From an uncultured Chloroflexia bacterium (GTDB lineage Bacteria; Chloroflexota; Anaerolineae; CG2-30-64-16), in the NCBI GenBank assembly GCA_963810095.1, contig CAWEMM010000006.1, positions 832,001 through 896,000 of the forward strand: a DNA stretch of 64,000 nucleotides. Direction: 5' to 3'. Below, piece after piece: positions 12,732 through 56,108 of the stretch (the first letter of the stretch is position 1; each line of letters opens with the position of its first letter). Both the position numbers and the translations under genes were made by a program. Below the pieces are notes generated by a model, which worked only from the letters and a program-made list of their open reading frames with translations, was not told the origin of the DNA and made no database searches.

Positions 12732-15700
12732 TTAAGGCGCGCCCGGGAACAAGGGTGAAGTCGAATTCCGCCTCCTCCCGCGAGTCGAGCGAGCGTCCGC
12801 CTGCGCCGTTGACCGCTACCACCTTGTAGAAATGGTTCACTGCCGGGTCGCCCACCACGCCCTTGTCGATGTACACACTGCGATCCCCGCCGAAGTCGGA
12901 CGGGTGGACCTCGGACACGAGCGTCATGCTCGCGCCCGCACCCGTCGTGCCGTACGGCGTCTCGCTGCGCCACAATTCGTACCGGTTCGGAAACTCGTAG
13001 CCGTCGGACACGTCACGGATGATCGCCGCCCAATTCACGTTCAGATCGACCGTGTTGGTGATGACGGAGAAGGGCAGCGGCACCTCCGGCTGGTCGGCTT
13101 TGCTGGGCGCCACCAGGACGAGACCCGACTGGGGCGGTACGTCAGCGGTAATCTGGCACACGACGAACGTGTCCGGGTTGCATTGGGTCGTGAACGTGTT
13201 GCCGGTCACGACGTCCATCCACACTTCGTCCTGGAATGAGAGGTAAGGCGCCTTCTCCAGGTTTTGGAACACGATCGTGTGCGTCACCGCATCGCGATTC
13301 AGCGCGATCAGCTGCGGACTTCTGCTCGGCCTCCAGCGTTCGCGCGTAGGCATAGAGCTTGTCGGCGTCCGAGATGACGAGGCCGTGCTGCACGTCGCCA
13401 TACTGCAGCGCCGGGTAACCCTGCCGGGCACTGGTGAGGCTGCGCAGGAAGGGCAACGTGCCGGTGTAGGGCGTGTACGAGCCGGGGGTGTCGTCCCAGG
13501 GGAACGGCGTCCGGTTGTAAGGATCGTCCTGCCACGTCGCGTTGGTGCTGTCCCAGACGCCATCCGCCTGCACCTGCATCTCGTCCCCGTAATAGAGCGT
13601 CGGTGCGCCGGCGTAGGTCAGGTTGAAGAGCCAGTACTCCTTCATGCGCTGCAGCGCCGCCGCATCGTCGTCATTGTTGATCTTCTTCAGGAGGAAACGC
13701 AGGCGGTTTGTGTCGTGCGAGTCGCCCATATTCATCATGGCCTTGAACGCTGCCGGCGGGTAGTCCTCCTGGATCGAGCGCAGGCGGGCGTTGAGCTGGG
13801 AAGGCGTCAACGCGCTGATGGGGCCCGACGCGCTGTTCGCGTTGTCGTCGTTATCCTGGAAACTGGTGCCGCCCGTGCAGCCATCACCCGAGCATCCCGT
13901 GAAGAGCCAGCCGAGCGCGGCCGAGCGCAGGCGGTAGTTCATCGCACTGTCCCACTCGTTGCCAAGCAGCCAGGGCGACGCGTCGCCCCACTCCTCGCCC
14001 AGAACGAGGGGCACCGTGCGAGTCTGCACGCTCGTATCCTTGACCGCAGCACGGAAGCCTTCCCAGTAGGTATTTGGCTGCGCCGGGTCCTCCTGCGTCA
14101 GTCCTGGATCGATGTCGCCGGCCACGTCGAGCCGCCACCCGGAGGCACCTTGCTGCACCCAGTAAGGTCCGATGGATGGCTGCACACCCGTGCCACCGAT
14201 TCCCTTCGCGTACACGAGGTCACGCACGCCCTGGTTCGCGGAATCCAGCTTAGGCAGCGAGCCATAACCGTACCAGGCCGTGTACGTCTGCGTCCATGCC
14301 CCGCCGCGGTCGTCCGTGTCCGTGGGGTCGCAGCGGTCGTCGGCCCCCGAAGCGGGAGAGCCGCCATCCGGGATGAAGAACCACGCCCGGCGCGGCGAGT
14401 TCGGGCTCTCGCAGGCCTGAATGTTGTCGTCCAGGCCGGGACCGGTATTGCTGACCAGTTGGTCCTTGAAGTTGTACCGGCTGTAGCGATCGAAGTACGC
14501 GCTGTCCGACGACGTGTGGTTGAACACGCCATCGAGGATGATGCTGATGCCCTTGGCCGCCGCCGCGGCCTTGAGGTTTTGCCAGGCGGTCGAACCGCCA
14601 AATTCTTGGTCGATGCTGCGGTAGTTCGCCGTGTCGTACTTGTGATTCGACGGCGACGAAAAGATCGGGTTGATGTAGATGGCGCTCACCCCGAGGTTGT
14701 TGAAATAACCGTCGTTGATCTTCTGTGCGATGCCGGCCAGGTCGCCGCCGTAGAGGTTCTCGCCGAACTTGTTCTGACAAGGCCCCGTGCTGCGGGGGTC
14801 GCACAGGGTCGTGTTCCAGGTCATCGTGAACGAACGATAGATGGTGCCGCCGGGCTGATTATAGTAGAAGCGCGACTTGACCGCGTTGTTCACCGATTGG
14901 CCGTCGCGGAACCGGTCGGGGAAGATTTGGTAAACAATGCCCTTCTGCATCCAGTCGGGCGTGGTGAAGTTCTGGTCATAAACCGTGAGTTGATAAGAGT
15001 TGGCCTCGGCGTTGGCCTGGTTATCGTCAGGGGTGCCGTAGCCTCCGCCGTAGAACTTCGGGTCATCGTCCCGATAGAAGACCGTCTTCGTGCCGTCGAT
15101 CAGGCGGAAGGTGTAGTACAGAATCGTGGGGTCGGCCGGCACGGGCAGGTCGTAGGTCCAGAAAGTTACTTCGCCGTGCACCGGGTCGACCAGCTCGGGG
15201 CCGGCAACCATATCGTAGAGCAACTCGGTGTTCGTGCGATCGTCCCAGACCCGCAGCTTGGCGGCGGTAAGGTCGCCCCGGCAGGCGCGTACCCGCAAGG
15301 ACAGCGTCCCCGGCGCATTGCTCACGGCTCCAAGCGGACTGCGGTAGTCGGTGCTGAACGAGTCATGGAGCAGGGCCGACCAGAAGATGTTGTTGTCGGG
15401 CTTGGCGCCCAGGCAGTCGCCCGAGGTCGGTTGGTTGACGGTCAGCTTGATGTTGCCGCTGGACATCGTCGCCCAGTATTTCACGGGCGGCGATTCAGTG
15501 ACGTCAGTGCAGTAGGCCGTGAACTCGTACAGGCCCGAGAGCGGGGAGACCGTGGCGGTGAAACGGTCGCTGTTGCCAACGTCCTCTGACCACGTCATGG
15601 GCGTGTCGAAGGGGGTGGGCTGCCAGGCGCCGCCAAAGCTCGCAACCTTCGACCAGTACAGGTGGCATTCGATCTCATAGCTGTCGCCTGGGATCACATC

Positions 15701-40994: not shown

Positions 40995-43900
40995 TTACTG
41001 CCCCTTCACCAGCCCGAAGTCAAACTCTGCAACCCAACCGGAGTCGGCGGTCGACGTGCCCGCGCAGTTGACCGTGCGCAGGGTGTAGAAGTAGTTCGTG
41101 TCGGGATCGCCGACGGTCGGCGCCGGCTGGTCGACAAAGCTCCATGCCTTGCCGCTATACACCTTTTCGCTGCCCGGCGCTCCCGGTCCGGCGTAGGGCG
41201 GCGTGGCCCGCCACAGCTCATAACTGTCGTGCATCGAGCCGGCCCAGCTTGTCAGGGTGAAGACCTTACCCTGTATGGCGATCTTGGGCGACGTCGCCGT
41301 GGCCGGTCCGCAGATGCGTGTGTTGGCCCAGGCCTTGTTCGTCACGCTGCTCACGGTCGCGGTGGCTTCATTCGTGATATTGCTGTTTGCCGGCGCCGTC
41401 GCGTTGGCCTTGAAGCCCAGCGTCGCGGTCGTCGCCTCCAGCCCCACCCACACGTCCTTCGAGCCATCGGGCACAGTGCCCGTCTTCGTGCCGCTGCCGC
41501 TGTAGAAGTAGTACTGGACGCCCTCGTTGCCGGCCAGGTTCTCAGCGCCGATGCCCGCGGTGGGCGACGCCGTGCCTATGGTCGAGTTGAAGCCGGCCGG
41601 GTACGAGAACCAGATATTGTCGGTGCCATCCTCGATCCACAACTGGAACGAGAAGCGCTGGTTGGTCGCCTTAAGCCGGATGTTCTCCCACTCGACGACC
41701 GTGTGCGGCTTGCCGTTGCGGATGGTCAGGACGAGGTACATATTGCCGCCGGTCAGGTCGAGGTCGGCCCAGAACGGCGCCAGCAGGTTCTCCTGCATAT
41801 CGCCCGGATCGTTGGTCGGGAACTTGGTCGGCGTGCCCGTGGGGCAGAGCGGCGAGGTGGGGATGCCCGCGCGGACCACGCCGTTCATCGACACGAGGAT
41901 GTCGGTGTAGTGCGTGTCCAGGTAGTAGAAGTCCATCCCACCGAGCGAGAAGCAGCCGTTGTCGAGGCTTAAGCCGGCCAGGTCGGCAGGCGGCACCTGG
42001 CCCGCCATCTCTTCGTAGCCGCCGAGGTTCTTCTCGCGCCACACAAAAGCCGATGGGCCGAGGCTGACGTTGCCGCTCAGCGTGTTGGTCCCGCTGTTGT
42101 AAGTCCAGCCGCCCGTGGCCGAGTTCGCGACGTACGTCGAGCCCGCGGGCACCACGTCGGAAACGGCGAACGTCTGGCTCGACTTCAGCTTGTTCTTCAC
42201 CGTGACCGTGTAAGTCATCTGCGCGCCGGCGCCCGCACCGGCCGGCGTCACCGTCTTGACGATCTTGCCGGAGTCAGTCGAACCCGCCACCTTGATCGCA
42301 ACCGGCATGTGGAACTGCGGCGCCTTGCCGTCGGCTTCGGTGTAGACGACGGTGCCGAAATACCACTGGCCCGGCGTGAGACCGCTGACGTCCGTGATGT
42401 TCACGCCCAGGGCCTGCGTTGCGCCAGCATTGATGCTGAAACTCGGTACGGTCAGCGTCCCGACCAGGCCGTCGCTGCCCACGAACACGCCGTTCCAGGT
42501 CATCTGCTGGCCCGTCGGGTTGCGGACGGTGCGCGTCCAGCCGCACGACTTGTAGCACGCGTCGTCGCCCATCGAAGGGTAGTTGAGCGTCTTGGGGTCG
42601 CCGGCTGGCGTAGCGGCCGGGTTCGCTGCGGTGTACTCCGCGCCGGTGATGTTCAGCAGCAGGCCGGCGTTGAGGGCATTCGTGATGTTGACCCGGCCCG
42701 CACCCCGGTCGAACGGATCGGTCGGCGTCGCGCCGTCTTCCTTGCGCAGCGAGTTGTCCCACAGGCTGGTCGTCATCATCGCGGACTGGATTTCCGCCAC
42801 CGACCACGCCGGATACTTCGCCTTCATCATCAGCGCACCCGCGCCGGCCATGTGCGGGCTCGACATGGACGTGCCGCTGATAATGTTATACTCGGGTGCG
42901 GTGAACAGCGGGTCGGTGCCCCACGCGGCCATGATGTCCACGCCGGGCGCCGTCATGTCGGGCTTGATGAGGTCGGGCACCTGGTTGTTCTGCCCGCGCG
43001 AAGAGAATGCTGCCATCACGTCGCCGTTGTTCGGCTGGATGTCCTTGACCGTGCCAAGGATGCCGCCTGCGTGGCCTGTACCCGTCGCGAGCCAGTCCTT
43101 GAGCGTGACACCCTCGGCATAGGTAATGTGCACGCCGGGGATCGCATAGCCGTCGGCGATTTCCTCGTCGCCGTTCGACGCAGCGTTGACGAGGATCATG
43201 CCCACCCCACCCGCGGCCTTGACGTTGTCGGCTTTCTCGACGCGGGCATTATTGCCGCGGTCGCAGATGACGAGCTTGCCCGCGAGCGCCGTGGCCGACC
43301 ATACGCCAGAGAGACAGAGCGGATTGTTGTTCACGTTGCCAGCGTAGACGATCGGCGCGGGGCCGAGCGAGGTCGTCACGCTGCGCCCGTAGATGTCGGG
43401 CAGGCCCACGCCGTCAGACCGGGTCAGGTTGATCGCCGCGTTGATAAGCGCCCGGTCGTGGGTGGAGGCAGCCGTAGTGGTGACCCACGGGCTGCCGTGT
43501 GCCACGGTCGCTGCGCCCGGGCCCGAGTTGCCGGCGGAGGCCGAAACGAATGCGCCTGCATTGCGGAGGCCAAGGAAGGCCTGCTCGTCGGCCGCCACCC
43601 AGGGGCTCTCGCCCGAGCCGCTGATCGAATAGTTCACCGCGTCGACCTGGTCGGTCGCGGCCTGGTTGAGGGCAGCGACGAGATCGGTGTTGTTGCAGCC
43701 GCTGGGCGTGCAGGCGTCGTATGCTATGATCATGGCGTGCGGTGCGACGCCGGAGATGGTCATCGGTACGTCGATCGTCGGCGCGTGGAAGGTGACCGCA
43801 CCCACCCGGTTGCCGCCTGCAGTCGAAGCCGTGTGCGAGCCATGGCCCTCGAGGTCTTCGGGATCGTTGCCGCTGTTGGCGTAGCTGTAGAGGCCGATTA

Positions 43901-44624
43901 GCTTGCCGTTGCATTTCGCCAGGGGCGGGTTCTTAACGTTCGGATTGCACCAGCCGAAATACTGCGTATTGGTGCGATCGGGGAAGTCGTAGCCGTCGGG
44001 AGCGGGATCGGCGAACGAAGGATGGTCGGTGTTAATGCCCGTGTCGACCACGCCGATCACCATGCCCTCGCCGCAGTTGCCGCCCGGCGCGCACGAATCG
44101 GGGGCGCCCCACGCCGAGGGTGCGCCGATCCATTGCGGGCCGCGGTCGGTCAGCAGCTGGCGCACCTGCCGGGGCTCCACGAACTTCACGCCGGCAACGG
44201 TCTTGACGATCTCGGCTTCCGAAGCAGTCAACTGGAGGGTCAACCCGTTCAGCACGACGTCGTAAATGTAGCCGACCTCTGGCCGCCGGCTGAGCCGCTC
44301 TTCGGCCCGCTGCATGAACTCGGCGCGCTTCTCGGCGAGGAATGCCAAGTAGGCCTGGGCTTCCGGGCTGTTGACGTCGACCTTCGCAGCACCGGTGACC
44401 TCGGGGCTGGTCGGGGCAAGGTCCCTGATGCCGCCCCCATAGTTGGCAAGGGCGGGATTGTTCAGGGTGATGATATAAACGCCGGGGACACCGAAAGGTT
44501 GAGGTTGCAGCGCCTTGACAGGCGGCGCATCACCCGCGGCAAACGCAACGGCAGGTTGGCCGGTCAGTGCGAGGGGCACAACGAGCGCGAAGAGGACGAC
44601 GAGGAACAGTAGACGCCGAGCCAT
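40995..44624 (-). CDS. Secreted S8 subtilisin-like protease (I9 propeptide, PA, Fn3-like, DUF11) with C-terminal AEFDF domain
   Basis: VVDTG (Asp), GHGSHTAST (His), SGTSMSSPH (Ser), PA motif CDRGNNARVEK; signal peptide. Confidence 0.95.
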   Translation of the reverse strand: MARRLLFLVVLFALVVPLALTGQPAVAFAAGDAPPVKALQPQPFGVPGVYIITLNNPALANYGGGIRDLAPTSPEVTGAAKVDVNSPEAQAYLAFLAEKRAEFMQRAEERLSRRPEVGYIYDVVLNGLTLQLTASEAEIVKTVAGVKFVEPRQVRQLLTDRGPQWIGAPSAWGAPDSCAPGGNCGEGMVIGVVDTGINTDHPSFADPAPDGYDFPDRTNTQYFGWCNPNVKNPPLAKCNGKLIGLYSYANSGNDPEDLEGHGSHTASTAGGNRVGAVTFHAPTIDVPMTISGVAPHAMIIAYDACTPSGCNNTDLVAALNQAATDQVDAVNYSISGSGESPWVAADEQAFLGLRNAGAFVSASAGNSGPGAATVAHGSPWVTTTAASTHDRALINAAINLTRSDGVGLPDIYGRSVTTSLGPAPIVYAGNVNNNPLCLSGVWSATALAGKLVICDRGNNARVEKADNVKAAGGVGMILVNAASNGDEEIADGYAIPGVHITYAEGVTLKDWLATGTGHAGGILGTVKDIQPNNGDVMAAFSSRGQNNQVPDLIKPDMTAPGVDIMAAWGTDPLFTAPEYNIISGTSMSSPHMAGAGALMMKAKYPAWSVAEIQSAMMTTSLWDNSLRKEDGATPTDPFDRGAGRVNITNALNAGLLLNITGAEYTAANPAATPAGDPKTLNYPSMGDDACYKSCGWTRTVRNPTGQQMTWNGVFVGSDGLVGTLTVPSFSINAGATQALGVNITDVSGLTPGQWYFGTVVYTEADGKAPQFHMPVAIKVAGSTDSGKIVKTVTPAGAGAGAQMTYTVTVKNKLKSSQTFAVSDVVPAGSTYVANSATGGWTYNSGTNTLSGNVSLGPSAFVWREKNLGGYEEMAGQVPPADLAGLSLDNGCFSLGGMDFYYLDTHYTDILVSMNGVVRAGIPTSPLCPTGTPTKFPTNDPGDMQENLLAPFWADLDLTGGNMYLVLTIRNGKPHTVVEWENIRLKATNQRFSFQLWIEDGTDNIWFSYPAGFNSTIGTASPTAGIGAENLAGNEGVQYYFYSGSGTKTGTVPDGSKDVWVGLEATTATLGFKANATAPANSNITNEATATVSSVTNKAWANTRICGPATATSPKIAIQGKVFTLTSWAGSMHDSYELWRATPPYAGPGAPGSEKVYSGKAWSFVDQPAPTVGDPDTNYFYTLRTVNCAGTSTADSGWVAEFDFGLVKGQ

Positions 44625-45026
44625 ATGGGTGGACACTCCTTACGGGACGAGTTGGGGAAACTGGAATTGCACTCAACCAAGTACAGACGCACGAAACATT
44701 ATAGCATGCCCCGCGCGGCCTTCAAAGAGCGCCTTTTTCGCCAGAGTGCCAAACGGGACGCGGCGTCAGAGTACATTCCCGTGCAGTAGGAACCTCCCGT
44801 GGTCTGCGAGGCCGCGCGGGCCTTCTTCGCATACGGCAGTGTCACAGCAGCCGGGCTGGGGCGATGTGAACGCAAGCGGCGGCGCGGGCGTTAAGCCACT
44901 GTGGGGTTGAGAGCAAACGGGTGTTGGGTCGCGGCCCGGCAAGATCGATTATCAGTTGTTGGGGCAGGTGCAGACGTGGTTGGACCGGGGAATCTCAGAA
45001 CACGAATCGCTCGAGGCGCCGCGCGA

Positions 45027-46262
45027 GTGGCGAGGGTCCGGCCGCAGGTCGCGAGCATCCTCTCGGGCATCATCTTCCTCCCGCTGCTGCTGGCCGCATC
45101 CAACAGCCTCACTTGGACGCAGGTCAACACGCCTGGCTTTGCCGAGCACGCGCCGCCCTACACAGGGCAGGAAGCCTTCGATCTTACCGTGTTCGACGAC
45201 CGGCTGTACCTGGGGATGGAAGGCTTCGCCTGCGCGCGTGTCTGGCGCAGCCGGGCCGGCGTCGTCTCCCCTTCCATCCAGTCGGACTGGGAGCAGGTCG
45301 TCTCGAACGGCTTTGACGGCGCGGCCGATTGTACGACCACGCCACCGCCCACCGACAACGACCACGTCGACAGCCTCGAACCTTTCCGCGGCTACCTCTA
45401 CGCCTCCACCGCGATGCAGACGGCCGGTAAGCGCGGCACGCAGGTCTGGCGCAGCGCCACCGGCGATGCGGGCACGTGGGTGCGGGTCAACGAACCCGGC
45501 TTCGGCGTGCACGCGAACGAGAACTTCAAGGACATGATCGAGTTCGCCGGGCTGCTGTGCGGCGGCACTGGCAATCCGGGCGCACCTGGCATTGCAGCGG
45601 GCGCCCAGGTGTGGTGCACCGACGGGATCACGCCCGATCCGGTCCATCCGGGCGAGCTCCTGTGGACGCAGCGCAGCCCAAACGGCTTCGGGCACGCCGA
45701 AAATGTGAAGGTATGGTCGTCGGCGGTCTACGACGGCGCGCTCTATTTCGGCGTGGAAGCGCAAGGGGCGGACGGCTCCATCTGGCGCACGCTCAGCATC
45801 GACGACCCGGCCGCGTGGGAGCAGGTGTTCGGGCCGGCCGAGGCCGGTGTCCATGCGACTCGGGTCGACGTGCTGCAGGGCTTCGCCGGCAACCTCTATA
45901 TCGGCTTGGCCGTCCCAGGTCAGGGCGTCCGGATCTATCGGAGCCCAAGCGGCGACCCCGGCACCTGGCAACCGGTCGTGGGCGATGGTTTCGGCACGCC
46001 AACCACGGGCAGATTGATCTCCGATGCCTCGGCCGTCCTGGGCGACACGCTATACGTCGCCGCACTGGACGAAGTGCAAGGCGTAGGGGTGTGGGGCACC
46101 CGCGACGGGGTGTCCTGGGTGCGGGCCGCTCCCTACGGGTTCGGCAGCCCCACCACCTTCGCCGCGGAGCTGGCGGCCTTCCACGACGAGTTGTACGCGT
46201 GGACCAGCGACTACGCGACGGGGCCAGGCGTGTGGCGCGGCCGTCGCCAACCGTGGCCTTAA
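45027..46262 (+). CDS. Secreted beta-propeller protein (seven W.QV...GFG repeats)
   Basis: WTQVNTPGF, WEQVVSNGFD, WVRVNEPGFG, WTQRSPNGFG, WEQVFG, WQPVVGDGFG, WVRAAPYGFG; start codon uncertain. Confidence 0.7.
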   Translation: MARVRPQVASILSGIIFLPLLLAASNSLTWTQVNTPGFAEHAPPYTGQEAFDLTVFDDRLYLGMEGFACARVWRSRAGVVSPSIQSDWEQVVSNGFDGAADCTTTPPPTDNDHVDSLEPFRGYLYASTAMQTAGKRGTQVWRSATGDAGTWVRVNEPGFGVHANENFKDMIEFAGLLCGGTGNPGAPGIAAGAQVWCTDGITPDPVHPGELLWTQRSPNGFGHAENVKVWSSAVYDGALYFGVEAQGADGSIWRTLSIDDPAAWEQVFGPAEAGVHATRVDVLQGFAGNLYIGLAVPGQGVRIYRSPSGDPGTWQPVVGDGFGTPTTGRLISDASAVLGDTLYVAALDEVQGVGVWGTRDGVSWVRAAPYGFGSPTTFAAELAAFHDELYAWTSDYATGPGVWRGRRQPWP

Positions 46263-46274
46263 TCGAAAATTCAT

Positions 46275-46303
46275 TTGACAACGCTCACCGGGAACCATAT
46301 ACT
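46275..46303 (+). promoter_or_regulatory. sigma70 promoter of the C25 operon
   Basis: TTGACA (46275-46280), 17-bp spacer, TATACT (46298-46303). Confidence 0.75.
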
Positions 46304-46425
46304 TGAAACCTGCGACATAACGTCAATCTCGTAGATTCGTGCCAGTGCGTGCCCAGGCACGCTAAGCGCCAGACGCTTTGCTCGGTTGCACGCGTCTGGC
46401 GTACTTGTCCTTAGAGAGTGCTTCC

Positions 46426-48742
46426 ATGCCGCTATCTCCACAGCCCGGGCGTCTCCGCGTCTGGCCCGGCTTGATAAAGGCGTCTTGCATCGCATTCGCC
46501 TTGCTCCTGGTTTCGGTCGCCTACCTGCCACCCGCGCATGCCGCACAGGAAGCGGCCTCGACCGCGGCGCGGGTGCGCATCGGCGTCGTCAAGGACGGGG
46601 TGACGGTCATTGCGCCTGGCGACCTGGCCGCTGCAGGCGTCGACCCAAACGGCGTCGATCCCCGCACGTTCGCGCTCAGCAGCCTCGGGCAGCCGGTTGC
46701 CGTCTACGTAACGGGCGAGAACGACGGACGTTTCGACGGGGCCGACCGGCTGTACTTCTTCGGCGAGAAGTTCCGCGGGCCCGAAATGGACCAGAAGTAC
46801 ACTGACGAGCGCGTCTATTGGCTCGACATGGGCGGCGCGGCCGGCCCGCGCATGACGACGGTGGACGCAAGTCCGCTGTTCGACCGCACGCCGCCGGCCG
46901 ACTTTGCGACCACCCTGCATGCCGAGGAGTCTACCGTCTGGTGGACCCTCTACTCGCTGTCGCTGGCGCAAGAGACACAGGACACGTGGTTCTGGAAGAA
47001 GCTTTCGTTGCTCTCCGGTTCGTCCATCACCGGGACCTTGCCCTATACCGTGCCCTACCCGGCGAATGCCAGCGCCACCTTGCGCCTCGAGGAAATCAGC
47101 AACGCCCACGTGTACGGAGTCGATCCCGACCATCGCACGAAGGCTGCGCTTAACGGCGTCCCGCTGATCGATACAACGTGGGACGGCTTACAAGTGCGGA
47201 AGGTATTCAGCGCGCCCGTCCCGGCCGGGGTTTTGACGCATGGGACGAACACCCTTGCCGTTGGCGCCTGGACGGTGCCGGGAACTTCTTCGGACCTGGT
47301 CTACGTCAACTATTGGGAACTGGATTATCGCCGGCTGTTTCGCGCCTACGAAGACCGGCTTGACTTCAGGGCCGAGACAACCGGAACGCAGGAGTACGAG
47401 GGCAAGGGTTTTTCGAGTGCTGACGTCTGGGCATGGGATGTGAGTGCGCCGGGCGCTCCCGTGCGCCTGCTCGCCCCGGCTGCGGCGGATCTTCGCTTTC
47501 GGGTGAACGCGACGGCGGGCAATCGCTATTGGCTCCAGGCCGCGGGTAGCTTCCAATCGCCCGCGTCCATCCGGCGACGCCTGCCGACCGGGTTGCGCGA
47601 TCCGCAAGGGGGCGCCGACTCCGTCATCGTGACCTCGACCGAGTTGCAGCCGCAGGCCGACCGCCTCGCCGAGTGGCACCGGGCGCACGGGCGCCGCGCG
47701 CTGGTCGTGAATATCCAGGATGCCTACGACGAGTTCAACGATGGCATTTATCATCCCAAGGCCGTGCAGGCGATGATGAAGTGGGCCAGCACACATTGGA
47801 CGAGCCCGGCGCCCCAGTACCTGACCCTTTTCGGCGATGGGCACTGGAACTTCAAAAACTACAACCCGGCCGAGTACCCGGGTGGGCCGAACCACATCCC
47901 GCCCTACCTCGCCTTTGAGGACATCTGGCAGGGCGAAGTCCCGGTCGATGCCCGCTTTGGCGACCTGAACGACGACAAGCTGCCAGACGATTGCGGTCGG
48001 CCGGATCGCCGTCGACACCGTCGCAGAGGCCGCGATCGTGGTCGACAAGATCCTCGCCTACGACGAAAACGCGCGCTTGGCTGGGTGGCAGCGCCGGGCC
48101 ATCTTCGTCTCGGACAACGCCGACCTCGACGGTGACTTCCCGACGGTTTCGGATGAAATGATCGCCAACTACACGCCGAAGGACCTGCAGGTCAGCCGGG
48201 TCTACCTGCCGCCCGCGGCGACGCCGGATCAGATTGCCGCGACTCGGAACGCATTGCGCAGCGCCTGGAACGACGGCGCCTTCATGGTGCAGTTCACCGG
48301 CCACGGTGCGCCCGAGCGGTGGACGCATGAGTTCATCCTGACCACCACGGACGTCCTCAACGGAACGTTCACGAACGGCTCCCGCCTGCCCATCGTCCTG
48401 ACCTTCAACTGCCTGGACGGCTACTTCGCGCACGCCCAGCCGGGTCGGATCAGTATCGCCGAAACGATGCAGCGAGCCCCCGGTGGCGGTTCGATCGCGG
48501 CCATCTCGCCGGCCGGCCTCGGCGCGACAGATGTGCAAGCGGCCTTCCGCCGCGTCCTGCTGACCGTCCTCTTCACTGACAACGTCCGTGAGATCGGCCG
48601 GGCACTCACGATCACCAAGCAGCGCTTCGCCGAGACCTACGGGGCGCACTACCTGACGCAGACCATGATGCTGTTCGGCGACCCGGCCATGCAGGTGCCG
48701 GCGGGAACGCCGAAGCAATATCTGCCCATTATCGTCCGCTAA
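46426..48742 (+). CDS. C25 family (gingipain/PorU-like) cysteine peptidase 1 (frameshift near 47985)
   Basis: YTDERVYWL, YDEFNDG, YLTLFGDG, VGRI, FTGHG (His), FNCLDGYF (Cys), LFGDPA; ends QYLPIIVR. Confidence 0.88.
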
Positions 48743-48798
48743 AGTTTGCAGGTGCGCGCCTCCTGACGCGCTCGCTGCCGTGGATTGAGAGACGCTCG

Positions 48799-49782
48799 AT
48801 GCATCGCAGACAATTGTTGGCCGCTGTCGGGTTGACAGCACTGTGCGCCGTCCTATTGCTCGGCCCGGCCCTGGCGTCGGTCGAGCTGGTGTCCTTCGGG
48901 GCCGAGCCGACGACCAATAACACGATCATGGTGACCTGGGAAACCGCAACCGAGCGGGACATGATCGGTTTCAAGCTGTACCGGTCTCTGACCGGTTCGG
49001 GCGCTGATTGGGTCGACTTGATCCCCGAGGGCGTCCCCGCAGACGGCACGGCGCAGGGCGGCGCCCGATACGGCTTTGAGGACAAAACGGACATTGCCCT
49101 GAACACGAGGTACTACTACCAGCTGAAGGAAATCTCGAACACAGGCGACGTCGTGGAGATTGCCCGGGCATCGACCGGGATCGGCCTTCCTGCCGACACC
49201 GCAACCTCCACCGGCACTCCGACCGCCAGCCCCACCTGGACCAGGGTGGCCGGCTCGGTCGGCGGTGCAGCGACCGCGACGCCGCCCCGTCCGACGGCAA
49301 CGCCGCGTTACACCCTCGCGCCGCCGACCGCGGCGCCGGGCACCCCCGCCCCGCGAGCCGGGACCACGGCAACGGTCCAGGCGGCCGTCAGCACGCGCAC
49401 GCCGCTCGTCGGTGCGCAGGTTGCCACGCCGACGGGCGCCGCGCCGAGGGTCACCCTGCCCGCTCCCGCGAGCCCGGCGGTCCAGCAACCCGTCGACACG
49501 CCCGCGCCCCTTGCCCCCGAAACACCCACCCCCGACCTCGTCGCGATGGCCGAGGGCCCAGGGGCCGAATCGCCAACCCCTGTTCCAACAAAGGACGCCA
49601 CGCCGGTGATCTTCTCTTCGGCAGAGGAAGGCACAGCCTCGCCCACGCCCGCCGGCGCCGAACAGACATCCGGCGAGGGTGCAGAGAGCAGCACACGAGC
49701 CCTCGTGATCGGGGGCGGCGCGCTCGGCATCGGGGCCCTGCTCGCCGCGCTCTACCTGTTCCTGCGATCACGGCGCGGCTAA
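48799..49782 (+). CDS. Surface protein: signal, Fn3-like 'VELVSF..WETATE..GFKLYRS' domain, PT-rich stalk, C-terminal TM + RSRRG
   Basis: Direct reading of the translation. Confidence 0.8.
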   Translation: MHRRQLLAAVGLTALCAVLLLGPALASVELVSFGAEPTTNNTIMVTWETATERDMIGFKLYRSLTGSGADWVDLIPEGVPADGTAQGGARYGFEDKTDIALNTRYYYQLKEISNTGDVVEIARASTGIGLPADTATSTGTPTASPTWTRVAGSVGGAATATPPRPTATPRYTLAPPTAAPGTPAPRAGTTATVQAAVSTRTPLVGAQVATPTGAAPRVTLPAPASPAVQQPVDTPAPLAPETPTPDLVAMAEGPGAESPTPVPTKDATPVIFSSAEEGTASPTPAGAEQTSGEGAESSTRALVIGGGALGIGALLAALYLFLRSRRG

Positions 49783-49786
49783 GCCC

Positions 49787-51743
49787 ATGGTCCAGCGATT
49801 CCGGCGTCCGTTCGCGTGTGTGCTTCTGCTGTGCCTCGTCGTGCTTGCGGTCTCCGCCTGCACCGGCGCAAAAACCCTGCCCCCCGCCAGCAGCAGTGCC
49901 GTCAAGATCGGGGTGGACGAGGACGGCGTGTACCAGGTGACGGCAAGAGACCTCCTGAACGCCGGTTTTGACCTCGCCGCCGCGGAAAGCGAGGGGGTCA
50001 GCCTGTCGGTCGGCGGCGCCCCAGTCCCGTACGAATGGGTAGGTCGCGGGGGCGACCTGGCGATCCGGTTCGAAGGTATGCGTCTCGGCCCTGACAGCTA
50101 CACCCCTCGCAATATCTACTGGCTGACACGCGGAGCGCCAAGCACGGAGGGACCGGCCGCTGCCGAGGCACGACCCTCGCCAACCGCCACGCCCGCGGCC
50201 GGTGTCATCACTGCCACGGTGCGGCTCGAGCAGGATCTCCAATACGACCCGCAGGCCGTCCGCCCTGACCAGCGCTGGTACTGGCAGACGATCTTCGCAC
50301 CCGCCAAGGTTGAAGTCGGGTTCGATGCACCGGGAGTGAAGGACGCGCCCGCCGAGTTGCGAGTCGACGTAATCTCAAAGTCATCGGCCAACGTCGATCC
50401 GGATCACCGCCTGCTCGTTTTCGTCAACGATGCGTTTGTCTCTGACGCCGCCTGGGATGGCGCGGTCCCCCACTTACTCACTGCCGCCGTTCCTGCCGGC
50501 GTGTTGAAGGAGAAGGACAACCGTATCAGGATCGAAGCACCGGGCGACACCGGCGCTCCTGCCGATGCGGTTCAGCTGCACCGCATCGAAATCGCTTACC
50601 GCGGGACCCCGAACGCAGACGGGGCTGCGCCGCGCTCGCCGGCCTCGGTCGAAGTCCCCGCACTCAGCAGCCTGCCGGACTTGCCAGCCGGCGCCGACCT
50701 TGTGATCGTGACCGCACCTCAGTTCCACGACGCGCTCGGCGCCCCTTGTCGAAGCCCGGACGAAGCAAGGACTGCGGGTCGCCGTGCTGGATGTGGGGCA
50801 GGTCTACGACGCGTTCAGCTACGGGCGCCGCGATCCGCAGGCCATTCAAGCCCTGATGCGCTACGCCCGGCAGCACTGGCAGGCGCCCGCTCCGCGCTAC
50901 CTGCTCCTGGCGGGCGACGCGAGCTATGACCCGCTCGGCCGTACGCAGGGAACCGAGGTTGACCTCGTCCCCACCTACGACGTCTATACCACCTTCTCGG
51001 GGTGGACCGGGTCCGACGTGTGGTATGCGCTGCCCGACGATGCCGAGAACGCGATGCCGGCTTTTGCCGTGGGCCGCTTCCCCGCCCAGACGCCCGAGCA
51101 GATGGCGGCGATGGTGCAGAAGACGTTGAGCTATGAGGCGCAGACAGGCGACCTGGGGTGGCGCTCCGCCGCGCTGCTGGTGGCCGACAACGACGAGCCG
51201 GGCTTCGCGGAAGAAACGCAGAGCTTCGCCTCACAACTCAAGGGTTACCAATCCGGGCAACTCACGATCGACGGGGACGGAGCGAACGCAAAGAACGCGC
51301 TGCTCGGCGCGTTCTCGAAGGGTGCCGGGCTGATCGGCTACTTTGGCCACGGCAGCGTCACCCTGTGGGCCAAGGAGAAAGTCCTGGAGGTGGCAGAGGC
51401 GGCCAAGCTGAGCAACAAGGACCGCCTGCCCATCGTCTTCACCGTGACGTGCCTGAGCGGATTCTTCGAGCACCCGTCCACCGTCTCGCTGGGAGAGGCG
51501 CTGGTGCGCAATCCAAACGGGGGGGCTGTCGCAGCACTTGTGCCGAGCAGCGCGGCGGTGCTGACCGACCAGCGACTGCTGGCCCAGGGGCTGGCGGCAG
51601 CGCTTGCCCAGCCGGCGCCGCGCGCCCTTGGAGACACCATCCACGACGCGCAGCTCAGCCTCCCACGCGAGACTGGCGGCGTGCGCGAAATCCTGTTGAC
51701 CTTCAACCTGCTCGGCGATCCGTCGCTCACCGTCAAACGCTGA
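49787..51743 (+). CDS. C25 family cysteine peptidase 2, lipoprotein (frameshift near 50745)
   Basis: AVSAC lipobox, YTPRNIYWL, YDAFSYG, YLLLAGDASYDP, VGRFP, YFGHG (His), VTCLSGFF (Cys), LLGDPS. Confidence 0.88.
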
Positions 51744-51778
51744 GATAGCCCCGCGTCCCCGCTTAGGGGCGCGGGCAC

Positions 51779-54700
51779 TCACTTACACGAATTTAACACG
51801 TCTGGCTGGGGGAACAATGTCCGCGCGTCGGCGCCGTGTGCCCAGATGTTGCTGAAGGTCGGAGCTCCGTCCACGCTGACCCAGAAGTAGAGCCGGTTCA
51901 GCGGTTCGTTCGCCGGGCTCACGTCCACGTCGTTGAAGTCCCACGCCAGGAACTTCACCCCGTTCGCCCCCGTAATCACCCGTGACACACCCGGCCAACC
52001 CGAACCCGGCGCGGCTTCGGGCTCGTTGTTCAGGCTTGCATGCAAGCGGACGGCCGGCGTCCACCCGGACGCCGAGGAAATGTCGGGCGCCAGCGCCTGT
52101 TGCGTTCCAACAGTGAACAGGTAGGCCGTGATGTTCGCCGCCTGCGCCTGCTGCACCGGCAGGTTGTCCTGCGGCCACACAATCTGGATCTTGCCGTCCA
52201 ACGCGCTGGGCCGGACACGCGTCACGCTGGTCGGAACGTCCTGCTGCGGGAACAGGGTGCGCGCGTCGACTGCGTGCACCCAGACATTGCTCAGTGTTCG
52301 CACCGGCACGCCCGGGCTCTCCACCGTCAGGAAGAATGACAGCTTGTTAGCCGGATCGCGGGCCTGGCGCACGTCGACGTCGTTAAAGTCCCACGCGGGG
52401 AAATTGCGGCCCCCACCCGTGACCATGCGCTTCTGCCCCACGCCTGCCAAGCGCGCCGGCTGGTTGTTGAGGGCGGCCCACAGCCGCACTGTCGGCTCCC
52501 AATTGCAGGGGACAGAATCCAGCAGCGTGCGCGCGCCCTGCGTACCATCTCCGGCAAGGAGATAAGCGGTGATATTTGCCAGGTCCGCTTCCTCGACCCC
52601 GGCGCCTCCGTGCGGCCAGACAATCTCGATCTTTGCTCGCACCGTGACCGCCGTGGGAGTCGGCGCGGGCGTTTGTGTCGCGCGCTGAGTCGGGGCCGGG
52701 GTGGGAGTGCGAGTCAGAGCCGCAGTTGCGGTCCGAGTCGCAGTCGCGGTGCGGGTTGCGGTCGAAGTGCGTGTGAAGGTCGCCGTGCGCGTCGGCGCCG
52801 GGGTGGGGGTGCGGGTAACGGCCGTGGCGCCGCCGGGCGTAGGCGTGAGTTGGTTGGCGCAGGTCGCGTCGTCGAAGAAACTCACGCTGTTGGCGGGGTA
52901 ATTCGACACCGCGATCCGGTTGCCCTGTGCCACAAGCCCTTGCCCGCCCTGCGAATCCCCCTGGTCCAACAGGGGCAGGACGTCCACGACGCCCGAGTCC
53001 GGGTCGATCGCAAACAGCCGGTCCCCCTGCGCGTCCACCGCGAAGACGTGGCCCGTCCCCTCGTTGACGGCAACCGCGTAAGCCGGCCCAGGCAGCGTGT
53101 ACCGCCGTACTGGCGTCAGGGCCGGCAGGCTGAGCGCGGCCACCGTCCCGCCCTCGCTGCCCACGTACAACTGCTTGCGCAGCGGGTCGTAGGCCATGCC
53201 GCGCGTGTCGGCCAGCCCGCTGCTCGACCGCCCGAGCACTTTGCCGGAGGGATCGAGCCGGGTGATGGCGCCGTCCAGGTGCAGGACGTACACCTGGTCG
53301 CCCACGACCAGTGCAGTGACCGGCGCCGGGCCAACGCGGGTCGTCGCCAGGCGCTGGCGCGCGGCGAGGTCGACGACCGTCACCGTTTCATCCCCGAAGT
53401 TGACGACGTACGCGGCCCCTGTGCCCGCGGGCCCAGGGCCGGCGCCCACGCCCCACGGCAGGCTGCCGGCAGGAATCACCGCCAACAGCTGGCCGGTCGC
53501 GGCGCGGTGGAGCGTCACGGTCCCGGTATCGCGATTGCTGGCAACGAGGGTGTCACCCCAGACGGCCAGCCCGTTCGTGCGGCCGGGACCCGACGCCTGC
53601 TGCCATGTACGGACTCGGGTGTCGCCGGTGAACCGGACGACTTCGCTCGACTCGAAGAGCGCGGCGTAAAACCCGTCTGGCCCCGCGGCGAGGGCACGAG
53701 GCCCGTTCAGCGCCAGCGAGCCCAGCGGCCGGGGCGCGCAGGCCGACACCGGCGCAGGGCCGGGCGTAAACGAAGGCGTCGCGGTCGGGGCTGCGGTGGC
53801 AGTCGCCGGAACCGGCGTTGCGGTAGGGGTGCGCGCCGGGGTAGCGGTGCCCGTCGAGGTCGCGGGCGCAACCGGGGTGGAGGTGGCCGCAGGCGTGCGA
53901 GCAGCAGTCGCCGTCGCCGCAGCGGTGGGGCTCACGATCACAGGCTGGGTTGCGGAAGCGGCCGGCACGGCCGTGGGGGTCGCGGAAGCCGCTGGCACGG
54001 AAGTTGAAGTGGGCGCGGCCGTGGGCATCGGCGTTGCTGTGGCAGCCAGGGTCGGAACGGCCGTCCGAGTCGCCGTTGGGGTCGCGGTGGGAACCGGTGT
54101 CGGCGTGGGTTCCTGCGTCGCTGTGGCCGACGGCGGCAGAGCCGTGTTCGTTGCAGTGGGCGCCGGCGTCGGCGTCGCGGTCGGCTGAAACGCGCTTTTC
54201 GGGAACCGTGACATACACCTGGTGGAGGTATTCGGGCCCGGCCCCGTCGTTGATGATCTGCAGGAAGTTGTCGCCATCCAGCACGTTGCCGATCGCGACA
54301 TTCTCCACCCACGTCACCTCCTGCCAGATGCGGGTGTCACCCTTGCGAATCGTGTGCCGGGCCGGACGCCCGTTCGCGCCGGGCAGGACGACGTCGAAGC
54401 TGTCAGTCCCGATGTCGAGGTACGAGACGGTGGTCTCCAGCGGCGCAGACAGGCCAAACGCGGGCCAGTCGCCGCTGACCGCGACCCGCAGCGTCTTCCC
54501 CGCGTCGAGCCGGCGGGCCTGGCGGTTATACAGGCGGTTGAGCGTATCGGGGCCCGGGCTGGGGGTCGCCGCGGGCGTAATGATCGGAGTGGGTAGCGAC
54601 TCGGGGCAGGCGGGCGTGAGGCTAAGTGCGCCTCCCGCGGTCGCGGTGGCATTTGCCGAGCGGGCGCTCTTCGCCAGCGACGGCGCGCAAACCTGCGGCG

Positions 54701-56108
54701 CCTCGTCGGCATTCACCGCCCGCAGGTACTTGCCCCAGTCGCCGATGCTCCCGGAAGTCCCATAACCGGGGGTGAAATCGTACGTGGGATACTCCCGGTC
54801 TCGGAACACGAGCCACGCTCGCCGCTCGGAGCCGAGCCAATAGTCGACCACCTGCCACATGGGCTGCGAGAAGCTGCCCTTCCAAGGGCTGTGGTACAAG
54901 ACGAAATTGCCGCCGTTACCCGCGCCACTCAGCACGGTCCAGTACATGCCTTCGACGCTTGGGGTGTGCGCGTCGAACTCGTACAGCATCGGGTAGCCGA
55001 GATCGCGCAGCGCCCGGCCGACAGTCCACTTGTTCCACGTAGTCAGCGCGTTGCCGGGCCGCTCGTCGACGTCGGGCCGGTCGACGTTGATGTTGTTCAT
55101 CGAGACGCCAATGGGCTTCCCGGCCCATTGCTCTTCGTACAGCCACTTGCGGAAGGCTTTGCCGCTCATCGTCGTGCACGGCGAACTGTCGACCATGGAA
55201 AGCACGGCTTTGTCGGGGAAGGCGCGCACGGCCGCTTCGGTCAGGTCGCGCACGTAGATCATGTACTCATTGCATGAGACGGTCTTCTCATGCTCGGTCA
55301 TCACGCTCTTCTGGGTGTCGCTGCCACAGTCGAGATTATCCCTGCCTGCCGGCGGCACCGCGTCCCAGTAAGGCTGGCACTGGACGACCGGCTGACTCTC
55401 GCCCTGCACACCGACATACACCCGCACCGCGGCCACCTGCGGGTTGCTGTTGTAGCGCTGCCCCGCGGCCTGGATGAACTCGATCATCCGCTTCTTGAAC
55501 TCGCCCCCGTAGCGGATGGACTGGTAGACGTTGCCGGAAGCAGGGACGGTGAATGAGAAGCGGTAGGCGTCGTTCTGCATCCAGGGAGGCAAGTGCAGAC
55601 GGATAAACGGGTTGCCGGCGCTGCCCGGTTCGCCGTGCCCTGTCGTGTTGTACCATCGGCTGCCGGTGTCTGAGTACCCGCTGGGCACGGTCAGGATGAC
55701 AGGCTGCGGGACGACCTGCCCGTCGGCCAACTTTACCTTCGCGGCCGCGGCCTGCTTCAGGCAGTAGTCGTAGGGCGACCAGTTGATCGCGGAGCGCGCG
55801 TCCCACACGCCGGTCGCGCCCACGTCGCCGCCCGAGCCCAGATAGCTGATGCAGTCGACGCCCACCATTTCGTTGCCCGGCGCCAGCGGATCGCCCGGCT
55901 CACGGGTCGGGGGGATCGCGTTGCCGGCCGTGCTCCAGGCGACGTACAGCCCGGGAACGCCGGGAACAATCAGCGGCTTGCCGGCGGGCGGTTCGGGAGA
56001 CTGGACGGGCGGGAGTGTGGGGGGTGGGGGTGGGTTATTGAGGCCGCGACAACTCGTCAGCAGGATGACGGTCAAGACGAGAACCAGGGCGATCGGCAGT
56101 CTTCTCAC
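51779..56108 (-). CDS. Large modular lipoprotein: glycoside-hydrolase-like N-terminus, PT linker, YVTN-type beta-propeller, PT linker, two tandem unknown domains (frameshift near 54190)
   Basis: LLTSC lipobox; [20 protein letters not shown] features resemble TIM-barrel GH; [17 protein letters not shown] repeats; duplicated KIx[21 protein letters not shown] domain. Confidence 0.7.

Follow-up and report, generated by a model that had tools for sequence, protein, structure and literature searches.

The window examined here is a 64,000-nt stretch of DNA from an uncultured Chloroflexota bacterium, whose genome (G000) is assembled into 16 contigs at 88.5% completeness. Between positions 46275 and 51743 its plus strand carries, in this order, a promoter-like site, a gene for a peptidase of family C25 (C25-1), a 327-codon middle gene for a membrane protein with a long stalk, and a gene for a second C25 peptidase (C25-2). 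This gene trio, and the secreted proteins on which it may act, are the subject of the present work. The putative sigma-70-like promoter (46275..46303, plus strand) reads TTGACA-17-TATACT, and the near-consensus match claimed in the original prediction, which had been made from the DNA letters alone, holds at 11 of 12 positions; three sites of this type lie in 7.7 kb, where shuffled sequence would lead one to expect 0.6. C25-1 (46426..48742, plus strand) begins with an ATG at 46426 and a signal peptide and ends, directly before its stop codon, in QYLPIIVR, a tail of the YLP-box type described below. The stalk protein (48799..49782, plus strand) is modelled with a signal peptide, an Fn3 head, a Pro/Thr-rich disordered stalk and a C-terminal transmembrane (TM) helix followed by RSRRG. 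C25-2 (49787..51743, plus strand) starts 4 nt past the stop of the middle gene and is of lipoprotein type, with a lipobox VSAC (in ...LAVSACTG, Cys codon 49859-49861) that was read directly from the sequence, without a predictor; its orthologues have LGAC, LSGC and LAGC. The signal peptide, the modelled stalk with its TM helix, and the lipobox agree with the earlier description of a secreted C25-1, a stalked membrane protein and a lipoprotein C25-2.

As assembled, neither C25 gene is a single open reading frame (ORF). C25-1 is split over ORFs 46378-48135 and 48038-48742 by one extra base at 47989/47990, and C25-2 over ORFs 49787-50929 and 50784-51743 by one extra base in a C run near 50737-50741. 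Five intact C25 orthologues from related genomes, used as tblastn queries, join the pieces at these very places with at most one residue unaligned (C25-1 at 47988/47990, where the frame changes; C25-2 at 50737/50739-50742). We also compared positions 46300-51800 with short-read contigs, mostly at least 99% identical, from four public freshwater-sediment metagenome runs. One letter is missing at 47989/47990 in both contigs that cover that site and at 50737 in all three that cover the other, and no further indel was reported across these 5.5 kb. Because the five orthologues join there and all five spanning contigs lack the extra base, we conclude that the frame breaks are assembly errors and that both genes are intact in the population; the two intact C25 peptidases of the original prediction are thus a property of the population, and not of the assembly from which they were read. 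The +1 shifts in both C25 genes as assembled could be taken as signs of a decaying operon with two pseudogenes, or of programmed +1 frameshifting, and we rejected both possibilities, which we regard as highly improbable, because the extra bases are absent from the population contigs. The orthologues, moreover, are single open frames (~650-835 residues counted from the first start codon), and the genome, with its 16 contigs and incomplete gene content, looks like an error-prone long-read metagenome-assembled genome (MAG), with a third likely break nearby and several very short ORFs that carry a C-terminal domain discussed below.

This third break is a probable single-base frame error near 54190-54198, in the minus-strand gene downstream of C25-2: two ORFs there (53553-56108 and 51779-54301, within 51779-56108) overlap by 750 bp and correspond to one gene in genomes G005 and G021. 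The DnaK of a relative, G001, is also split over two frames. Tails with a low GC content at third codon positions are found on 28.5% of ORFs here and on 21% in other MAG loci, a measure too crude to serve as a frameshift rate.

Both enzymes pass the gathering score of Peptidase family C25 (PF01364, cut-off 23 bits), C25-1 in two pieces (E 1.9e-26 and 2e-39; 93.6 and 136.3 bits) and C25-2 at E 9.3e-71 (239.5 bits). The catalytic codons are those of His 48302-48304 and Cys 48410-48412 (in TFNCLD) in C25-1, and of the GHG His 51348-51350 and Cys 51450-51452 (in TVTCLS) in C25-2. In the orthologues from genome G004, the same residues of both enzymes align with those of gingipain R (RgpB) and PorU, so the claim of a retained GHG His and catalytic Cys in both peptidases stands. 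The motifs are present in all seven C25-1 rows and all six C25-2 rows of family f1; when more distant rows were searched with a simple motif, three of four C25-1-like rows gave no GHG and the Cys context went unrecognised in one of three C25-2 rows.

The two enzymes share ~30% identity with each other, and both appear nearer to PorU than to the gingipains. PorU is described in three papers as the C-terminal signal peptidase/sortase within Bacteroidota's type IX secretion system (T9SS) (PMC4560394, PMC8545088, PMC4804311). In PDB searches with the intact G004 orthologues, C25-1 matched PorU (6za2) at E 7e-22 and RgpB at 3e-8, and C25-2 matched them at E 6.7e-21 and 1e-12, respectively. The NCBIfam PorU model NF033707 aligned to the intact G004 C25-1 in one stretch (241.4 bits, model positions 63-733 of 1095) and to the intact C25-2 in its catalytic part only (191.5 bits), while the broken fragments in the window scored 118.5, 104.1 and 182.9 bits. 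These matches and the retained catalytic residues support the PorU-like reading of the enzymes in the original prediction, and we regard them, on sequence comparison, as PorU-like and not as PorU. RgpB Asp163, the S1-pocket Asp of gingipain R (Arg/Lys specificity), lies opposite an Ala in G004 C25-2, in a stretch that is gapped and poorly aligned.

The stalk protein has no family match in Pfam or NCBIfam, and in the Protein Atlas it finds only unnamed Chloroflexota clusters. Its structure model consists of a signal helix, an Fn3 beta-sandwich (residues 28-127, with a predicted local distance difference test score, pLDDT, of ~90), a disordered Pro/Thr stalk of ~160 residues (137-300), and the TM helix with its RSRRG end. 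The head is thus predicted to have the seven-strand Fn3 fold, and the best PDB matches in a fold search (Z 10.6 to 9) are mostly generic Fn3 modules. In an alignment of orthologues, residues of the head are conserved, as is a motif in the stalk. The motif, PTATRQFTNTP (about residues 160-175; TATPRYTLAP in the window), is set within an otherwise variable Pro/Thr stalk and has no second occurrence elsewhere in the genome.

The three genes belong together well beyond this genome. A search for relatives of C25-2 in one-genome-per-species contigs gave 428 candidate stretches, 302 of which encode a relative, and we kept the best 80. All but one of these 80 are in MAGs titled as Chloroflexota lineages (Anaerolineae, Anaerolineales, Caldilineales, Promineifilaceae, Ardenticatenaceae, Thermoflexales), which supports the earlier assignment of the host to Chloroflexota; the remaining one is in a MAG titled Zixiibacteriota. 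In 64 of the loci there is room for the stalk gene, and 59 of these have it directly upstream of C25-2; a further C25 gene lies upstream of the stalk gene in 47 of 55. The conserved core of the locus is therefore the trio of C25, stalk protein and C25-2, and it is conserved across Anaerolineae. Among 54 upstream C25s, 20 have a YLP-type tail by the strict pattern and about nine more by eye, and one has instead a larger C-terminal domain, to which we now turn.

The original prediction had listed three C-terminal signals in the window, an AEFDF domain, a PNAV tail and YLPxxxR, and the first and last of these are recurrent tags. No frame of the window has PNAV at eight residues or fewer from a stop, and only two ORFs of the genome end in it, both outside the window. 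The AEFDF tail is the end of a C-terminal domain of ~95 residues with the invariant pattern PY...G...F.F.L, which we call the GEFDF domain and which is probably all-beta. In the window it forms the C-terminal end (40998-41285) of a subtilase of family S8 (40995..44636, minus strand; I9 propeptide, PA, fn3 and DUF11 by Pfam), a candidate cargo protein. GEFDF-domain proteins lie at most 6 kb from the trio in the window and in six of the 80 related loci, and six of ten such proteins examined are peptidases (two of family S8 and one each of M4, M28, a C39-like family and a C25 paralogue). Ten copies of the domain had no Pfam match at E <=0.001, and the window copy, the one scanned against NCBIfam, had none there. 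A structure model of the domain had a mean pLDDT of 56, too low for a fold search, and an hhalign comparison with the stalk head gave a probability of 45%, with no clear kinship. The genome holds 19 copies; six of its 16 GEFDF-domain ORFs are only 107-180 codons long, which suggests more upstream indel errors in the assembly. A further copy in the window (12742-13056, minus strand; G000:C6:844742-845056; 63 bits) is part of a 321-codon ORF, the frame of which continues past the domain, and this gene may be frame-damaged.

We profiled the domain against the trio in 36 other genomes of the family plus our own, counting a C25-2 orthologue as present at >=590 bits. Twelve genera have the orthologue, and in 11 of them the domain occurs, in up to 32 copies per genome (the exception, g7, has none); of the five genera without the orthologue, one has the domain (Fisher test on genera, p ~0.01, without phylogenetic correction). 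These five are g14 (three genomes, each 99% complete), g6 (99% and 97%), g3 (92%), g5 (80%) and g2 (65%), and their only GEFDF domain is one copy in genome G012. The orthologue is also absent from G003 (89%), which has three GEFDF copies, and G343, which has 12, gives a borderline C25-2 match of 548 bits. Within the family, a DnaK tree of 30 genomes places g14 in one lineage and g5 together with g6 in another, albeit with weak backbone support, which suggests about two joint losses of the trio and the domain. Beyond the family, we examined a phylum sample of 300 genomes, each >=90% complete (one, G302, is flagged as unpublished): a single copy in G108 is the only match stronger than E 1e-7, and eight other genomes have single weak matches (E 4e-7 to 8e-5). 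The co-occurrence proposed for C25 enzymes and the AEFDF domain is thus seen among genera of the family, but the trio has a far wider distribution than the domain.

The second tag is much shorter. Defined as [YF]LP[LIVMA][LIVMT]x[RK], the YLP motif occurs 32 times in coding-like ORFs of the genome, 21 times at most three residues from the stop, and ~20 to 26 proteins of the genome are YLP-box-tailed, mostly adhesin-like or propeller proteins. Twelve that were scanned contained BNR, SdrD_B/SpaA, CBM9, PKD, PD40/TIG, RCC1, Kelch, PA14 and InlB-B-repeat domains, and no peptidase. The tail corresponds to the 'YLP-box putative sorting motif' of NCBIfam (NF053834 'ultrashort_CTERM' and NF050076 'sort_motif_YLP'); 'YLP-box' was not found as a term in the open-access literature. 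In G021 and G002, the tails of the C25-1 orthologues score 13.4 and 12.9 bits with NF053834, above its cut-off of 10, and the tail of C25-1 in the window fits the motif at its very C-terminus, though hmmscan did not report it.

In the phylum sample, we counted YLP tails as a back-translated tail-plus-stop pattern against a reversed control, and C25 enzymes by PF01364 at E <=1e-10. A C25 is found in 41 of the 300 genomes. By hand tally, 17 genomes from five families have a YLP excess of at least 8 over the control, and 16 of these have a C25. Within our family, YLP tails persist in members that lack the trio and keep other C25s; because the tails remain there, we conclude that the YLP-box goes with C25 enzymes in general, and not with this trio. 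For YLPxxxR, then, the proposed co-occurrence was found for the enzyme family as a whole, but it is not specific to the trio and has an exception (G263, below). C25-type enzymes also recurrently adjoin YLP-tailed proteins, and these genomes hold multiple C25 genes each (3 to 9 matches). A second C25 locus of our genome (G000:C7:76362-79690, plus strand) encodes a protein with a 'YYKLEEV' segment like that of the stalk head and the end ...FLPWIGR, followed by a 931-codon C25 ORF that ends ...FLPSVSR; it is this YLP-tailed C25 type, ~900 residues long, that is spread across the phylum sample. In G108, five YLP-type tail-plus-stop matches, including two identical pairs, lie within 4 kb (G108:C1:648090-651970, plus strand) in what look like tandem small genes.

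The original prediction had noted no T9SS genes in the window, and in the source genome, at its 88.5% completeness, models for SprA, PorV and GldM found no match, a result that is weakly validated since controls were silent for two of the three models. Por_Secre_tail has a single match in the genome, of 48 bits (G000:C5:61079-61315, plus strand), and the 62-kb contig that bears it is lower in GC (0.615) and possibly contamination.

Of the genes around the trio, the one directly upstream (44901..46262, plus strand) encodes a repeat-rich secreted protein of no known family: Pfam and NCBIfam gave no match, a PDB sequence search no meaningful match and the Protein Atlas no usable one. It is present in four of the 80 related loci, close relatives only, and lies outside the conserved core. 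The trio of G021 has as its neighbour what is apparently an M14-like peptidase, judged by eye.

Taken together, the likeness to PorU, the three different anchors in the trio (the YLP-box tail on C25-1, the TM helix on the stalk protein and the lipobox on C25-2) and the fixed retention of a divergent enzyme pair make PorU-like processing or attachment the best single reading of the trio. We tentatively propose, at less than even confidence, that it acts at the cell surface without a T9SS, processing or attaching secreted proteins that carry C-terminal tags. Tagged proteins would first be exported by Sec. C25-2, with its lipid anchor, and the tethered C25-1 would then recognise the tagged C-terminus and, by analogy with PorU, cut off the tag, after which the mature protein would be either set free or passed on to an acceptor; the stalk protein may be a scaffold or that acceptor. 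The GEFDF domain hardly occurs apart from the trio, but the trio is widespread where the domain is missing, a pattern that fits a general surface machine for lineage-specific tags.

Several results weigh against this proposal. The intact orthologues, at 241.4 and 191.5 bits, fall well short of the 420-bit cut-off of the PorU equivalog NF033707. C25-1 and many C25 paralogues themselves bear tags, as cargo would no less than a sorting enzyme, and the neighbouring genes encode secreted peptidases (S8 here, the apparently M14-like one in G021), as would be expected were the locus simply a proteolytic island. The related genomes are not independent, so that behind the family profile there are perhaps two loss events, and many Anaerolineae have the trio without any GEFDF domain (G013 and G349 have the trio and no copy), from which it follows that the domain is not its only substrate. 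The YLP tails are also imperfect companions. Many C25-bearing genomes have no YLP excess, the trio-lacking genomes G020 (12 tails against 4 in the control) and G011 (15 against 4) have YLP tails, and G263, which is 97% complete in three contigs, yields no C25 even when the threshold is relaxed to E 0.001, yet has 15 tails (2 in the control).

Nearly as likely as processing and attachment is that the C25s are gingipain-like degradative proteases that feed on external protein at the cell surface, held there by their tags, with the stalk protein as a spacer or holder and no sorting involved. This would explain why C25-1 has a YLP-box and many C25 paralogues a GEFDF domain, why the locus adjoins a subtilase and most of the GEFDF-domain proteins examined are peptidases, why C25 genes are multi-copy, and why YLP tails are present without the trio. 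Yet the enzymes resemble PorU more than they do the gingipains, their PorU-like N-terminal region included; a pair of C25s at ~30% identity, kept class-wide together with a non-enzymatic anchored protein, would be rare for redundant feeding enzymes; and the trio and the GEFDF family are jointly missing in separate lineages. A narrower function, which we consider decidedly unlikely, is that the trio is a maturation device that only hydrolyses, cutting propeptides or C-terminal domains and so activating co-tagged zymogens such as S8 enzymes with I9 and M4 enzymes with FTP. GEFDF-domain proteins do include propeptide-bearing enzymes, and GEFDF-domain enzymes co-occur and cluster with the trio, but the trio is common where tagged peptidases are absent, and hydrolysis and transfer would both fit the data.

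The YLP tails might also need no enzyme at all. A tail of ~8 residues, at the very end of the protein and with no TM segment, could be donated as a beta-strand to a conserved surface protein and dock there, in which case the trio would be unrelated to the tag and the tails of G263, with no C25 beside them, would be accounted for. This idea, which we hold to be more improbable still, sits poorly with the presence of C25s in all but one of the 17 YLP-rich genomes and with the recurrence of C25-type enzymes beside YLP-tailed proteins, and it leaves the role of the trio unexplained. In the other direction, processing and attachment by the trio could amount to a complete PorU-type sortase system free of the T9SS, in which the lipid-anchored and tethered C25s cut the GEFDF domain, and perhaps the YLP-box, and transfer the cargo covalently to the stalk protein or a wall polymer. 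We judge this fuller version unlikely, though less so than hydrolytic maturation or enzyme-free docking.

To our knowledge PorU is the only C25 enzyme known to be a sortase, and it is known only within the T9SS of Bacteroidota; no report of PorU-like enzymes in Chloroflexota was found in the open-access literature. What is new here is the intactness of the window genes, the GEFDF domain family with its carriers, and the two profiles. A conserved PorU-like pair in a phylum without a T9SS would show that such chemistry arose, or persists, independently. It would also supply a candidate enzyme for tags so far catalogued only as 'putative sorting motifs', and would help to explain how hydrolases and adhesins are retained at the surface of filamentous Chloroflexota in sludge and sediments. 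Should the C25s be ordinary surface proteases, the finding reduces to a conserved proteolytic gene trio, whereas a T9SS-free sortase system would add to sortases and exosortases a third type of enzyme, unrelated to them, that sorts surface proteins, in a monoderm-style cell.

Among known systems, the gingipains RgpB and Kgp of Porphyromonas gingivalis (PDB 1CVR, 4IEF) share with these enzymes the catalytic domain family, the His/Cys dyad and a place at the surface as anchored cysteine peptidases, but they match them more weakly (E 1e-12 and 3e-8), and the N-terminal region of the C25s is PorU-like, with no gingipain prodomain. The resemblance to PorU (PDB 6ZA2; NF033707) goes further: it extends from the C25 fold with its catalytic His and Cys to the N-terminal part, which C25-1 matches together with the catalytic part (model positions 63-733), to a C-terminal tag on the enzyme itself (the YLP tail of C25-1), and to a genome setting with many secreted hydrolases and adhesins that share a C-terminal tag. 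Unlike PorU, these C25s have no counterpart of the C-terminal third of the model (its last ~360 positions), searches of this genome for T9SS core genes (SprA, PorV and GldM) gave no match, and the tags, a YLP-box of ~8 residues and the GEFDF domain, are unrelated to T9SS C-terminal domains; furthermore, two divergent enzymes, one of them a lipoprotein, are encoded here in one operon with a TM-anchored stalk protein. As for the YLP-box of NCBIfam (NF053834/NF050076), the C25-1 tail of the window fits the motif and two orthologue tails pass the cut-off, but NCBIfam names no sorting enzyme for it. In the sortase/LPXTG and exosortase/PEP-CTERM systems, a dedicated Cys peptidase serves a family of C-terminally tagged surface proteins. 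The enzyme fold in our case is another one, the tags lack the TM helix plus basic tail, and the TM/RSRR end of the stalk protein looks like a plain anchor; but the general plan is alike, with a Cys peptidase, a family of tagged proteins and Pro/Thr-rich linkers that span the wall ahead of the tag.

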